From Alphaproteobacteria bacterium (lineage in GTDB: Bacteria; Pseudomonadota; Alphaproteobacteria; Rickettsiales; SXRF01): DNA of 64,000 nt. Every line of letters starts with the position of its first letter. Position 1 is the first letter of the stretch. The translations under genes and the position numbers were made by a program. Below, in pieces: positions 12,155 to 19,416 of the stretch. The notes under the pieces are model-generated. The model did not search any database, was not told the DNA's origin, and saw only the letters and a list, made by a program, of their open reading frames with translations. Where the stretch lies: assembly GCA_025362975.1 (NCBI GenBank), contig JANYES010000011.1, forward strand, positions 65,581 through 129,580, in the 5' to 3' direction.

Positions 12155-14206
12155 ATGTTCAGTTTTGCCCAACCCCCTGCCCTTTACCGCCAAAGCGGCC
12201 TTGCGCTGCTGCTGGTGCTGCTGCAATGCTGGTTGGTTTGCATGCCGCCGTTTCAGACGGGCATCTGGGTGCAGACGGAGCCGACGATCTGTTTCCTATA
12301 TATCTGCGCGTGCTTAAGCGCGCTGTGGCTGGGTGTCGGCGCGTTTAAGGGGTGGCTTACGCCCGCGCAAGGTTGCACGCCGTTGTTACTGTTGATGCTG
12401 GGGTGGATTGCATGGCAGATCGTGATGACGTGTACGGCGATATTGCCATACCGCTCGTGGTTCGGGCCGCCGCAGACTGGCGACGGGACCGGGATTGCCA
12501 TCGCTACCTTGCTGACAGCACTGCTGACCTGTCCGGTGTGGCAGGTGGTTTCGATGCGCCGGATTATTCTGATTGTGTGTGCGGTGAGTTATTTTGTTCA
12601 ATGCGTGTTGCATCTCATTTATCCTGAAGTCGGCGGCAACCCGTATATGCCGGACCGCTGGGTGCCGGCACAGTGGCCGGAATATCTGCCGTTTATCGGG
12701 GCGTATCTGTGGGTGGCGGCGTTTCTGGGCGGGGCGATTACTTCGAAAAAATCTTTCGCCATTATGGTGGCAGCTATGCTGGTGATGTTGCGCGATTCGT
12801 GTAATAAGGCGGCGGGCGGGTTCTTTATTCCTGCGCTGGTGCTATCGTCGCTAATAGTGTTTTTACCGCAGGCAAAGCGTGTGTTCGCCGTGACGCCGCT
12901 GTGGCGCTGGCTTATGATTCTGGGGTGTCTGCTGCCGTTCTCGCTGGTGATTTTCAGCAACGATATTCAGGTCGGCAATACGCAAAGCCATAGCGCGCTA
13001 CGCAAAATATTCTCGGAAATGAACGAGGGTTTCGGCTCGCGCGTGTTGCTCAACCGCGTCGGGGTGATGACGATTCAGAATGAGCCGGAACGCATGGTGT
13101 TCGGCAATGGCTGGGGCACGTTCAGCGACGATTTATTCCGCTACGGGTTGGTGCCTGACACCTATGTGTATAAAAACGGCGAGCGGGTGCCGAACTGGTT
13201 CCTGATCGACGGCAGCTCGCACCATTCGCATAACCAGCCACTGGAGGCGCTGTTGTCGCTAGGCGCGGTGGGGCTGGCGCTGTGGTATGGGTTTTATGCG
13301 ATTGCGCTGATGCGATTGCCGGAGGCGCAGTTCTGGAGCGTGGCACCGATGCTGGTGGCGCTGACCGGGCTTGGACATTTCTGGTTCCCGTTGCCGCAAT
13401 GTTTTGCATATCAGGGGCTGTTTATGGGGGTGCTGCTGGTTTCGTGCGGCGGATTTAAGCCGCTGCCTTCGGTGCGCGGGCAGGTGATGGCCGTGTTTGC
13501 GGTGATGGCCGCCGTTGTAATGGGCCTGAGCGCGTGCGCCAAGTGGCATGCGATGATGCATGCCGATAGCGTACATAAGGCGATTCTTTATGGTTCGTAC
13601 AAAGACCATACGGAAGAATGGCTCGGTGAAGATATTGCCCGTGGCGGCGATAGCTGGGCGACCTCGGCGCGTTTTTATGCCACCGAAGCCTCTTCGCAGA
13701 CCCGGCTGGACGACAACACCCTCGGCTGGTTCACTTATTTCCTGCATAACGCGCATAGTGCCGCCCAGAATTCGCGCATCGGCCCACACGCGTCGTTCCT
13801 TGAGCTTCGCATCGAATATTACCTCTTCGGCGGGTTTAATAATCCGATATTTGATTCCTTGCGCCACGAGGCGACCGAGGCTTTCGAAAATTCCGCCATC
13901 CGCATGACCCATAAAGCGCCGCTGCGCGATGACCAGATCAGCTTTTTCCTGATCAACCTGCCGGGGCTGACCAATAACAATATCGAACGGGAGGAGCATA
14001 TCCTGAACCGTCTGCTGGCGGTAGCCCCGCATCACCGCAGCTGCCTGTGGTTGCTTGGCAATATTTACATGCAGATGCCGAGCAAGGAAGAACTAGGACG
14101 CGCCTTGCTGAAAGAAGCAATTGTAACCCATGTAGAAAAAATCTACCCGATTACCGACGCTCAGATCGCGGAAGCCTCTAAAGCACTGGGCTTGCCATCA
14201 CGTTAA
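12155..14206 (+). CDS. O-antigen ligase (Wzy_C) family polytopic membrane protein, PglL/TfpO-like, with helical C-terminal domain (paralogue A)
   Basis: 683 aa, more than 10 TM segments. Periplasmic-loop motif IDGSSHHSHNQPLEALLSLGAVGLALW is typical of O-antigen ligase/PglL. Collinear with 17365..19416 from MF..A.(A/P)P.L(Y/F)R to the C-terminal KAPLRDD..SFFL(I/V)NL. Confidence 0.65.
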   Translation: MFSFAQPPALYRQSGLALLLVLLQCWLVCMPPFQTGIWVQTEPTICFLYICACLSALWLGVGAFKGWLTPAQGCTPLLLLMLGWIAWQIVMTCTAILPYRSWFGPPQTGDGTGIAIATLLTALLTCPVWQVVSMRRIILIVCAVSYFVQCVLHLIYPEVGGNPYMPDRWVPAQWPEYLPFIGAYLWVAAFLGGAITSKKSFAIMVAAMLVMLRDSCNKAAGGFFIPALVLSSLIVFLPQAKRVFAVTPLWRWLMILGCLLPFSLVIFSNDIQVGNTQSHSALRKIFSEMNEGFGSRVLLNRVGVMTIQNEPERMVFGNGWGTFSDDLFRYGLVPDTYVYKNGERVPNWFLIDGSSHHSHNQPLEALLSLGAVGLALWYGFYAIALMRLPEAQFWSVAPMLVALTGLGHFWFPLPQCFAYQGLFMGVLLVSCGGFKPLPSVRGQVMAVFAVMAAVVMGLSACAKWHAMMHADSVHKAILYGSYKDHTEEWLGEDIARGGDSWATSARFYATEASSQTRLDDNTLGWFTYFLHNAHSAAQNSRIGPHASFLELRIEYYLFGGFNNPIFDSLRHEATEAFENSAIRMTHKAPLRDDQISFFLINLPGLTNNNIEREEHILNRLLAVAPHHRSCLWLLGNIYMQMPSKEELGRALLKEAIVTHVEKIYPITDAQIAEASKALGLPSR

Positions 14207-14269
14207 CTAACTCTGGACAAGGCTCAGGGCTTCCAGTAAAAATCCTACAGTTTAAGGGGGAAAAAACCT

Positions 14270-17360: not shown

Positions 17361-17364
17361 CATC

Positions 17365-19416
17365 ATGTTTGAACTCGCCCCGGCCCCGCTTTTATTCCGC
17401 CGCTGCGGGCTGTTTTTATTGCTGGCGCAGTTCAGTCTGTATGTGTTCGGGCTGCCGCCATTTCAGATGGGTATTTGGTATCAAACCGAACCGACGCTGG
17501 CGGCGATTTTTATTTTCGCCATTGGGGCAGCTGCTTGGCTGCTGGTCGGCATCATGCGCAACTATTTGGTGCCGCAGGCGCCGCACCCGGTTTGGGTGGT
17601 GCTGATTTTATGGGTGGTGTGGCAGGTGATTGCCAGTGCGCTGGCGCATAGTTTCTGGCGCTCTTGGTTCGGGCCGCCGGAACTTGGCGAGGGTGCTGCG
17701 CGTTCGATTGCGCTGCTGCTGCTTTCTATGGTCGCGTATCCGTTCTGGCAGGTGGAGTCGTATCGCAGGCTTATCCTGATTTTTGCAGGAAATAATATCT
17801 TGCTGCAATGCTGCCTGCATTGGCTTTCGCCGTTCAACCCTGAAAAAGGCTATGAGCTGGGCACGTGGGTGCCGGCGCGGTTTGCGGCGTATCTGGCGTT
17901 TATGACGGGGAATATGTGGATCGCCGCCCTTATGGGCGGGCAGATCAAGCGTATCGTGCATATCTGGCTGATGGTATTTTTTACCCTCGCCGTGTTGTGG
18001 CTGTCGCTTAATAAATCGGCGATGGTGTTGCTGGGGGCCGCTATTGCGGTGACGGGAATTGTGGGGGTGTGCGCGCGTTCGCGCTTGCTGGCACGGCTAT
18101 TACAGGTGGGTAAAACATGGCGCTGCGTGATGATACTGGCGTGTTTCCTGCCAATGGGCTGGATTGGGTTCAGCGTATATTATGGCGGCTCGGTCGGGCT
18201 TACGTCGGATGGGTTTTTCAACTATATCCTAAGTAAAAACGAAGCGCTCGGCTCGCGCGTGGCGCTTAACCAGGTGGCGGTTTCGACCATGCAACACGAG
18301 CCTTCACGCTGGCTGGCGGGCGACGGTTGGGGGCGTTTTACCGACGATATCTTTAAATACGCGCTGGTCGACGGCGTATATGTTTTCAAAAACGGTATCC
18401 ACGCGCCGAACTGGGCGCCGCTGGAAGGTAGCGCTTATCATAGCCACAGCCAGCCGCTGGAAGTACTGTTGTCGCTTGGGTTGCCGGGGTTGGTGCTTTG
18501 GTTTGCATTGCCTGTCGTGGCGCTGATGACGTTGCCGCGCAACTATTTCTGGGCGTGCGGGCCGATGCTGGTGGCGCTGGTGATGCTGACCTATTTCTGG
18601 TTTGAAATGCCGCAATGCCTTGCATATGACGCGCTGCTGATTGCAGCACTCAGCACGCAAGGGAGCAGGATTCGCTGGTGCGTCATCAATAATGTATGGG
18701 CAATGATGCTGGTTAATTTCTGCGGTATCGCCATGCTGTGGAGTGCGCAGTCACATATTCAAGCGATGCGGTATGGCGATGCGCTCAGCGTGGCGACGCT
18801 GAGCGGCCAACCGTTTGAGGGGTTTAGCGCAGAATACCTTGCCAGCGATATCGAGCGTGGCGGCGACCGGTTTTACGGGGCCGCCACGAATTATGCGTTA
18901 CAACTTGGCTACCGCACGACGATCGACGATAATGACCGGGGCTGGTATGGGCGGTATATTGAAGCGGCGCATATCGTGTCGCTCGACCCCAATATCGGGG
19001 CGCGCGCCGCTTCGACGGAGCTGTGGCTTCAATATAAGTTGCTGATCGATTTCGGCGGATTCCATTCCTTTGCCGAGCTTGGGCATCAGGCCATCCTGAC
19101 GCTGCCGGAGTCGGTCATGCTGGTGACGCAGAAGGCGCCGTTGCGAGACGATTACGCGAGCTTCTTCCTCGTCAACCTGAACTCGATAACCAATGACAAC
19201 AAGAACCGGCAGGTGGAGATTTTACAGAGTATCCTCGATATCGCACCCGACCACCGCCCTGCGACATGGGTGATGGGAAAGATTCTTTCAACACAGAAAG
19301 ACCATGTCGATGAAGGAAAATCGCTGATGGAACGCGCGGCATGGTTCGGGGTTAACACGGTGTATCCGGTGACGGACGATGCGATGGAAGTCGTAACGGG
19401 CCAGCAGAAATTTTAG
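17365..19416 (+). CDS. O-antigen ligase (Wzy_C) family polytopic membrane protein, PglL/TfpO-like (paralogue B)
   Basis: Also exactly 683 aa. LEGSAYHSHSQPLEVLLSLGLPGLVLW motif. Alignable with 12155..14206 over its full length. Confidence 0.65.
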   Translation: MFELAPAPLLFRRCGLFLLLAQFSLYVFGLPPFQMGIWYQTEPTLAAIFIFAIGAAAWLLVGIMRNYLVPQAPHPVWVVLILWVVWQVIASALAHSFWRSWFGPPELGEGAARSIALLLLSMVAYPFWQVESYRRLILIFAGNNILLQCCLHWLSPFNPEKGYELGTWVPARFAAYLAFMTGNMWIAALMGGQIKRIVHIWLMVFFTLAVLWLSLNKSAMVLLGAAIAVTGIVGVCARSRLLARLLQVGKTWRCVMILACFLPMGWIGFSVYYGGSVGLTSDGFFNYILSKNEALGSRVALNQVAVSTMQHEPSRWLAGDGWGRFTDDIFKYALVDGVYVFKNGIHAPNWAPLEGSAYHSHSQPLEVLLSLGLPGLVLWFALPVVALMTLPRNYFWACGPMLVALVMLTYFWFEMPQCLAYDALLIAALSTQGSRIRWCVINNVWAMMLVNFCGIAMLWSAQSHIQAMRYGDALSVATLSGQPFEGFSAEYLASDIERGGDRFYGAATNYALQLGYRTTIDDNDRGWYGRYIEAAHIVSLDPNIGARAASTELWLQYKLLIDFGGFHSFAELGHQAILTLPESVMLVTQKAPLRDDYASFFLVNLNSITNDNKNRQVEILQSILDIAPDHRPATWVMGKILSTQKDHVDEGKSLMERAAWFGVNTVYPVTDDAMEVVTGQQKF

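Follow-up and report, generated by a model that had tools for sequence, protein, structure and literature searches.

The 64-kb window analysed here, a stretch of 64,000 nucleotides on contig JANYES010000011.1 of an alphaproteobacterial assembly, is otherwise made up of housekeeping genes (pheST, purB, gltBD, the pyruvate dehydrogenase (PDH) complex, gyrA and dnaK) and contains two genes, here called WzyA and WzyB, that encode large membrane proteins of identical length (Table 1). An earlier note, made from the sequence alone, had described them as collinear paralogues of the O-antigen-ligase superfamily, closer to the protein-modifying PglL and TfpO enzymes than to the lipopolysaccharide (LPS) ligase WaaL, and had placed them in a duplicated, diversifying surface-modification module. 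Our analysis favours, at a probability of roughly 45%, the reading that WzyA and WzyB are catalytically intact, anciently diverged members of an uncharacterised WaaL/PglL clade (Wzy_C superfamily, GT-C-B fold) that act on a protein acceptor.

BLASTP aligns the two proteins end to end over 679 residues, 39% of them identical, with 19 gap positions (E 4e-156), a similarity that far exceeds chance. The two collinear 683-aa paralogues of the earlier note are thereby recovered at their exact coordinates, and every N-terminal, His-motif and C-terminal string it had quoted is found in WzyA or WzyB. Both copies retain the complete set of residues that are invariant across the wider family, which suggests that both are probably active enzymes. 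In a neighbour-joining tree WzyA pairs with one copy from the related locus L004 and WzyB with the other, and each of the two clades has further members; the orthologues of WzyA, at 51% identity, are L004a and the gene at 6264-8324 of L019. The existence of separate orthologous A and B clades shows a duplication older than the divergence of these organisms, and the pair is thus of ancient origin and not the product of a recent, diversifying duplication. Multiple copies are frequent, at two to three per genome: the window has two, one metagenome-assembled genome (MAG) has three (L004a, L004b and L006), and L008 has two in tandem. When the window is compared with L004 and L019, identity is 49-57% for the ligases, against 87-88% for the neighbouring TetR regulator, 84% for the membrane protein DUF5765b, 73-77% for a 52-aa peptide and 63% for the downstream SDR gene, and the ligases thus evolve fastest in the cassette. 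Enzymes that follow changing glycans or surface acceptors typically evolve in this way, though this does not in itself prove diversifying selection.

Assignment to the superfamily is carried by the family as a whole, its fold and its aligned residues. Pfam Wzy_C (PF04932) is matched at E<=0.01 by 26 of the 30 aligned family members in our scan (best 2.8e-14), and a precomputed PF04932 match is on record for most homologues; the NCBIfam scan of WzyA and WzyB returned no match. An AlphaFold2 model of WzyB built on the family alignment (pLDDT 89.4, pTM 0.90) was compared with the PDB using Foldseek, and the WaaL chain 7tpg_B (E 3.8e-4, probability 1.00, TM-score 0.53 normalised to WaaL) was the sole match below E 1e-3. 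This search returned none of the structures of PglL, PglS or TfpO, so the match to WaaL cannot separate WaaL from the protein O-oligosaccharyltransferases (O-OTases). Residues invariant in all 30 sequences include, in WzyB numbering, R298, P313, R315, G319, G321, H359, H361 and E366, and the corresponding residues of the predicted catalytic loop of WzyA are R296, P311, R313, G317, G319, H357, H359 and E364. An hhalign alignment with Escherichia coli K-12 WaaL, which we used solely for residue register, pairs R298 with R288, H359 with H336, H361 with H338 and E366 with E343. The importance of R288 and H338 in E. coli WaaL has been established by experiment, and their counterparts in Neisseria PglL (NmPglL) are R298 and H349 (PMC3643930). 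The Wzy_C matches across the family, the WaaL fold and the aligned Arg, His and Glu residues together make membership of the Wzy_C/O-antigen-ligase superfamily well supported, despite sub-threshold Pfam scores for both window copies; the membership proposed in the earlier note therefore stands on the family, the fold and the residues, and falls short where the two window copies are scored individually. We consider it highly probable that both proteins are undecaprenyl pyrophosphate (Und-PP)-glycan-dependent transferases of the WaaL/PglL superfamily, and that they belong to a distinct clade fused to a tetratricopeptide repeat (TPR)-like domain.

The architecture of this clade is read from the WzyB model, which has 13 transmembrane (TM) helices with Lys and Arg gathered in the short loops that face the same side as the N-terminus, and this positive-inside bias places a 90-residue loop and the whole C-terminal domain in the periplasm. 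The predicted periplasmic loop (aa 273-362, nt 18181-18450) bears R298, P313, R315, G319, G321, H359 and H361, and E366 lies just past it, at the start of TM10; the periplasmic position of the His motif, which the earlier note had asked to be checked by topology prediction, is thus the predicted one. TM13 (aa 443-465) is followed by a periplasmic domain of 218 aa (aa 466-683, nt 18760-19413), and the equivalent TPR-like domain of WzyA begins at about nt 13544. In the model the WzyB domain is all-helical and TPR-like, with Foldseek matches to TPR domains at probability 0.99, and when the full-length family profile is searched against PDB sequences the only matches are designed consensus TPR proteins. 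The domain has invariant charged residues of its own, in a D495-x-x-R-G-G-x-R502 motif, a P592-x-R594-x-D596 motif and at R631, and these suggest that it holds a specific, putative binding site and is more than a passive scaffold. W635 of the domain is invariant as well.

A word-indexed search retrieved 31 relatives, all from MAGs of uncultured Alphaproteobacteria or 'Rickettsiales'. The exhaustive search with the family profile, over 1.84 billion representatives of clusters formed at 50% identity, returned 617 proteins at E<=1e-3, of which 250 reach E<=1e-30, and among the matches listed at the stricter threshold nearly all are 640-700 aa long, with an alignment that runs from residue 1 to about 680 and takes in the TPR domain. 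No mainstream WaaL or Wzy protein reaches the threshold of that search, and the annotated plasmid collection contains no homologue of the family. These proteins form a coherent and well-separated clade of fixed architecture that is restricted to MAGs of uncultured Alphaproteobacteria. Their source annotation is 'hypothetical protein', with one source giving 'O-antigen ligase family protein' for one member.

Our survey of genomic context covered the window and about 24 related loci, and nowhere in it does a family gene belong to a cluster for LPS core, O-antigen or exopolysaccharide. The open reading frames (ORFs) scanned across the window include no LPS-core or O-antigen gene, and the earlier statement that such genes are not adjacent to WzyA and WzyB therefore holds for the window and extends to the related loci. 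When 92 neighbouring ORFs from 13 loci were scanned in bulk against Pfam, no glycosyltransferase, flippase or chain-length regulator recurred; what emerged was housekeeping synteny, PagL twice, OmpA twice and N_methyl. Other members are found near a Tad pilus locus, an autotransporter, and a two-partner-secretion pair with glycan genes. At the last of these (L039, 1-19954), a distant family member of 832 aa stands beside a divergent two-partner-secretion pair, consisting of a ShlB/POTRA transporter and a protein of at least 4009 aa, and is flanked on its other side by a TPR-Glyco_transf_9 protein, an epimerase/dehydratase, a nucleotidyltransferase and a fused GT2/GT1 protein; this may be an adhesin-glycosylation locus.

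The WaaL of E. coli K-12 and that of Cupriavidus metallidurans (PDB 7TPG) have the same fold and Arg/His/Glu register as WzyB and presumably share its Und-PP-glycan donor chemistry, which raises the alternative that WzyA and WzyB are themselves WaaL-type ligases of O-antigen or of another glycolipid. They would then pass an Und-PP polysaccharide to lipid A-core, the TPR-like domain would dock to Wzz- or Lpt-like machinery, and the paralogues would serve two polysaccharides. We regard this as rather unlikely, although 7tpg_B is the only significant structural match, the equivalents of R288, H338 and E343 are conserved, PagL and MlaA reveal lipid A-related genes in these organisms, one member bears the ligase label mentioned above, and the PglL-specific domains are missing from 30 members. 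In contrast to the WaaL gene of E. coli, which lies among waaC, waaF and waaU, the family gene stands outside waa and O-antigen loci throughout about 24 contexts. WaaL proteins have some 400-420 aa (419 aa in E. coli, 403 aa in the 7tpg chain), whereas the family, which has a thirteenth TM helix and the 218-aa periplasmic domain, exceeds this by about 270 residues, and its two to three copies per genome would be unusual for WaaL. The equivalent of WaaL R215 is Lys or Arg in just 16 of 30 family members, and the P-x5-G-x-G motif of the family does not occur in E. coli WaaL; GxG is among the features listed as PglL-specific by Schulz et al. (PMC3643930).

A polysaccharide polymerase is a further possibility to be weighed against the same contexts. 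Wzy_C also covers polymerases, and TPR scaffolds are common in exopolysaccharide export, so the family could comprise polymerases of the Wzy type, or ligases, for a polysaccharide that is secreted or forms a capsule, with the TPR-like domain as a scaffold to outer-membrane export, as in AlgK, PelB and BcsC. The L039 member, with its epimerase, nucleotidyltransferase, GT2/GT1 and TPR-GT9 neighbours, would fit such a role, as would L022, where the position of WzyB is taken by an Acyl_transf_3 gene (5874-6905, minus strand, E 1.5e-10). We consider the polymerase explanation distinctly unlikely, in that neither wzx, wzz, wza, wzc nor any glycosyltransferase gene recurs in the 92 ORFs of 13 loci or, except at L039, in six separately annotated contexts, the catalytic motif and fold fit a ligase, no polymerase structure is among the significant matches, and most members are orphan genes amid housekeeping genes. 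The Acyl_transf_3 family, to which the membrane acyltransferase of L022 belongs, includes glycan O-acetyltransferases.

The most suggestive neighbours for the favoured reading of a protein acceptor are pilin-like genes. The earlier note had singled out a long prepilin-like gene of the window as a conceivable substrate, and this gene is real: it has a class III signal (QG/FTLLEMTIVLVIMG), a C-terminal part rich in Gly and Ser, and at its end a Cys-rich tail, CSGGNPTCTINAGIKRCLCAM. It is isolated between COQ9 and the PDH E3 gene, 15 kb from the nearest ligase and with no pilus machinery nearby. Elsewhere, long type IV pilin-like proteins of 230-316 aa with the class III signal KG/FTLIELSIVLVIIG are recurrent neighbours of the family. 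Two such genes stand in tandem directly upstream of the ligase at L006 and one directly downstream of it at L013, on the same strand in each case, and at L007 and L015 pilin-like genes lie 5-6 kb from a family member; the family members of these four loci are scattered in different parts of the tree. The 17 further metagenome loci added no pilin gene, and the window prepilin shares with the pilin-like neighbours elsewhere residues 13-82 alone, that is, the generic N-terminal helix. For comparison, pilin genes adjoin 21 of 31 pglL homologues, and LPS loci contain none of the homologues (PMC3643930); the pilin context of the family resembles that of pglL, with a much weaker signal. The association lends some support to the idea of a pilin substrate, but it is weakly suggestive and its enrichment statistically not solid, and of the proposed prepilin substrate there remain a genuine gene and four loci with pilin-like genes near family members, while the link to the window prepilin itself goes no further than a generic helix.

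Under the favoured reading, WzyA and WzyB would transfer glycans to a periplasm-exposed protein, whether pilin-like, another surface protein or a lipoprotein, which we consider a more likely acceptor than lipid A-core because of the PglL/PglS-like architecture, a periplasmic TPR of the kind that serves as acceptor-side module in TfpW, the lack of LPS loci, the multi-copy state and the scattered surface-protein neighbours. An Und-PP-linked glycan, built elsewhere and flipped to the periplasmic face, would be bound via R298 and R315, together with K/R217 in about half of the members. The H359-x-H361 pair and E366, where the large periplasmic loop ends, would then catalyse transfer of the glycan en bloc to a hydroxyl of the acceptor. 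TM13 would bring the 218-residue TPR-like domain to the periplasmic side, next to the active site, where it would recruit the acceptor, and the two paralogues would differ in acceptor or donor specificity.

A number of observations weigh against this reading, and we set them out together. Both window copies score below the Wzy_C gathering score of 31.7 bits (WzyA 16.0 bits, E 0.01; WzyB 21.2 bits, E 2.7e-4), the hhalign comparison with E. coli WaaL alone is not significant (E 0.032, probability 1.6%), and a profile of the TM part only of the family retrieved no WaaL from PDB sequences. The window contains no donor-pathway gene, be it for an initiating transferase, a flippase or glycosyltransferases. 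The presence of lipid A-related PagL and MlaA among the neighbours of family members implies that the hosts make lipid A, and organisms that make lipid A may need a WaaL. Periplasmic TPR domains are also found in polysaccharide-export scaffolds. Pilin-like genes are nearby in 4 of 24 loci and adjacent in 2 of 24, most loci being without a nearby pilin; the 228 kb that lie no more than 6 kb from a family gene hold 5 of them (at 4 loci), the 110 kb further out hold none and the 64-kb window holds 1, and their density near family genes is not clearly higher than in the window overall. The neighbouring pilins end in FRFN, YPVE or YRLY and have no C-terminal Ser or Thr. Neither the window copies, scanned to E<=0.1, nor any of 30 members, scanned to E<=0.01, match the PglL_A (PF15864) and Wzy_C_2 (PF11846) domains, by which PglL and PglS are defined (PMC12645811). 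The residues specific to NmPglL are G316, G318, H400, E404 and P406 (PMC3643930); 51 to 57 residues past the catalytic His, where spacing alone would put the counterparts of H400, E404 and P406, the family has W412, F413, P416 and Q417 (W-F-x-x-P-Q) and no His or Glu.

The genes between and around the two ligases bear on whether they form a functional unit (Table 1). The two membrane paralogues, the 52-aa peptide, the TetR regulator and the lipoprotein-minigene array listed by the earlier note are all present between WzyA and WzyB, on the same strand.

Table 1. Features of the WzyA-WzyB locus and the prepilin-like gene of the window (positions within the 64-kb window)
Feature	Position	Strand	Description
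WzyA	12155..14206	+	683-aa predicted membrane glycan ligase of WaaL fold (Wzy_C superfamily); C-terminal TPR-like domain
DUF5765a	14270..14971	+	Polytopic membrane protein with invariant Cys/His; PF19069 E 1.4e-27
DUF5765b	14972..15760	+	Tandem paralogue of DUF5765a, 44% identity; PF19069 E 3.7e-37
pep52	15778..15936	+	52-aa Trp-rich two-helix membrane peptide; conserved cassette core
TetR	16047..16664	+	TetR-family regulator; TetR_N E 7e-13, TetR_C_13_2 E 1e-10
Lipoprotein gene	16669..16797	+	42 aa; lipobox LSGC; mature peptide CSCKEWGYCMHIFPNAERFAGN; always directly 3' of the TetR gene
Decayed repeat copies	16798..17364	+	Three tandem units, about 155-170 nt each, of lipoprotein gene plus downstream hairpin
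WzyB	17365..19416	+	683-aa paralogue of WzyA; 13 TM helices, periplasmic TPR-like domain
Convergent orphan ORF	19413..20774	-	Called as 440 aa; overlaps the WzyB stop codon by 4 nt
Long prepilin-like gene	34588..35556	-	322 aa; N_methyl 29.1 bits against a gathering score of 21.2

The DUF5765 proteins belong to a family of at least 1828 homologues that is highly conserved in Alphaproteobacteria and is both wider and more conserved than the ligase clade, with invariant residues that include C55, C102, C122, C130, C135, H70 and H142. In its AlphaFold2 model (pLDDT 90), DUF5765b forms a bundle of membrane helices with a beta-hairpin loop rich in Cys; the model has no significant match among PDB folds, which gave no functional lead, and a full-text search of a collection of papers found none that mentions DUF5765. 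The pair is missing from L019, whose downstream side is syntenic with the window (SDR, gltD, gltB, GST, queG), and the same tandem pair occurs in L040 (7289-8720) with no ligase or TetR gene nearby. DUF5765 was accordingly rejected as a dedicated ligase partner, being absent from L019, alone in L040 and part of a large, widespread family.

The small genes are more constant companions. The pep52 peptide is found at 77% identity in L004, 73% in L019 and 54% in L022, and in all four organisms it lies directly upstream of the TetR gene; PF27910 (Small_Trp_rich) is a weak precomputed match for the L019 peptide only, the window copy having no Pfam match. TetR is the most conserved gene of the cassette, at 83-88% identity in L004, L019, L022 and L031. 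The 42-aa lipoprotein that follows it, for which Pfam has no family, is a real gene, in that a mature lipopeptide of the form C[ST]CKEWGYCxx[IL]FPNAER is common to the window and these four organisms. In the window it opens a repeat array (16669-17364) of four tandem units of about 165 nt, each including a GGGAAAG...CTTTCCC hairpin, of which unit 1 alone is intact; a four-unit alignment with three-frame translation reveals units 2-4 to be frame-shifted and without start codons, and the direct repeat families D1-D3 within the array are 62-85% identical. The relatives L004, L019, L022 and L031 have a single lipoprotein copy and a gap of only about 80-260 bp, and the four-fold amplification is thus a local event specific to the window genome. 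The copies have diverged too far for Tandem Repeats Finder to pick up the array, and an Rfam search over 9.5-21.5 kb found tRNA-Met only, with no match in the array. The convergent 440-aa ORF beyond WzyB encodes a low-complexity sequence rich in Ala, Lys, Gln, Ser and Pro, with no visible signal peptide, and searches of Pfam, NCBIfam and PHROGs gave no match. L019 lacks this ORF, and the 470-aa gene found at the same place in L015 is unrelated to it, which led to its rejection as a conserved partner or substrate.

The order WzyA, pep52, TetR, lipoprotein, WzyB is kept in L004 and L019/L021, and TetR-lipoprotein-WzyB in L031; L022 has one ligase followed by pep52-TetR-lipoprotein. This raises the idea of a co-regulated envelope module in which WzyB and the small peptides would be under the control of TetR, and WzyB would have a putative cognate acceptor or partner in the 42-aa lipoprotein encoded immediately before it. 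We find such a module very unlikely. It would account for a pep52-TetR-lipoprotein order found in five organisms, with WzyB next in four, and for the conserved Ser/Thr at position +2 of the lipopeptide, and dedicated O-OTases are often encoded beside their substrates (PMC9829042, PMC12645811). However, the five organisms are close relatives (TetR 83-88%), so the order may be inherited and not selected, L022 has the three small genes without WzyB downstream, and most family members elsewhere have no pep52, TetR or lipoprotein neighbours. The pep52-TetR-lipoprotein core is syntenically conserved, its tie to ligase function being putative. The locus carries as passengers the DUF5765 pair, the orphan ORF convergent with WzyB and the decayed repeats. 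What survives of the earlier module is this conserved core; the locus as a whole is not one functional unit, the DUF5765 pair being optional and the 440-aa gene lineage-specific.

Further features of the window are recorded here as observations in their own right. Upstream of WzyA, the region 9916-12110 starts with tRNA-Met (9916-9990), followed at once by a 189-aa, weakly GIY-YIG-like ORF, and includes a CxxCxxCC (YkgJ-like) protein that also matches phrog_33999 (E 4e-40) and an orphan of 318-352 aa with faint similarity to XopAK and to N-terminal amidohydrolases. This upstream flank is unlike those of L019 and L004, whereas the downstream flank is syntenic with L019. The region may be a variable one beside a tRNA gene; as to signs of a genomic island at tRNA-Met, no integrase was seen and GC content is unremarkable. 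A 163-aa ORF between pheS and pheT (3444-3935) and a 223-aa ORF between gltD and gltB (23505-24176), which interrupt otherwise classical gene pairs, have no Pfam match on record, and the gltD-gltB gap of L019 holds a gene of 197 aa that likewise has no Pfam match.

WaaL/PglL superfamily enzymes decide what bacteria display at their surface and are workhorses of bioconjugate-vaccine production, and new O-OTase classes are actively sought, TfpM reportedly having been described only in 2022. If WzyA, WzyB and their relatives glycosylate proteins, a built-in TPR on the acceptor side would represent a new mode of acceptor recognition, and protein O-glycosylation would extend to a large uncultured group of Alphaproteobacteria annotated as Rickettsiales. 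If they are LPS ligases instead, WaaL can bear a large periplasmic docking domain. Either way, Pfam at its threshold and NCBIfam fail to name these proteins, hence their annotation as hypothetical.

Among the O-OTases, all known examples of which carry Wzy_C (PMC9829042), PglL and PglS are closest to the family in architecture. They share with it a Wzy_C core joined to a large periplasmic C-terminal domain (PMC12800693 for PglS; PMC12645811 for PglL), a conserved Pro and GxG in the large loop that correspond by spacing, a location outside LPS loci and the adjacency of some members to pilin genes, and the PglS model has, like WzyB, 13 TM helices followed by such a domain (PMC12800693). They differ in length, at 520-600 aa as against 683 aa in the family, and in the TPR-like nature of the family's C-terminal domain. 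TfpO/PilO and TfpM are likewise of the Wzy_C superfamily, and the co-directional adjacency of ligase and pilin genes at L006 and L013 recalls pilA-tfpO. TfpO and TfpM, at 420-470 aa, glycosylate a C-terminal Ser or Thr of the adjacent pilin (PMC9829042) and, unlike the family, have no C-terminal domain; nor is there an adjacent pilin gene in the window. Identity with TfpO or TfpM is ruled out by the 683-aa size and by the pilin C-termini. The PglL/TfpO label of the earlier note, taken in its strict sense, is thus not retained, neither PglL_A nor Wzy_C_2 being found in the 30 members.

The nearest parallel for the periplasmic TPR is TfpW of Pseudomonas aeruginosa, a 646-aa membrane D-arabinofuranosyl transferase with a periplasmic C-terminal TPR domain, which is encoded after pilA and glycosylates the pilin (bioRxiv 10.1101/2020.04.19.049825). 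Its core is ArnT-like GT-C with a DDX motif, whereas that of the family is WaaL/Wzy_C, and the periplasmic TPR alone is common to both; neither the WzyB fold search nor the Pfam scan of the window copies returned an ArnT- or PMT-type match. The eukaryotic TMTC O-mannosyltransferases, which act on proteins, likewise combine a GT-C membrane domain with TPR repeats, in their case luminal. It is possible, though we think it doubtful, that the family constitutes a fifth class of bacterial protein O-oligosaccharyltransferase, built from a WaaL/PglL core and an acceptor-selecting periplasmic TPR, with each paralogue dedicated to another surface protein, be it a long pilin-like protein, a small lipoprotein, an autotransporter or a two-partner-secretion adhesin. 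Were that so, and by analogy we suggest it only tentatively, the design of WzyA and WzyB would be convergent with those of TfpW and the TMTC enzymes.

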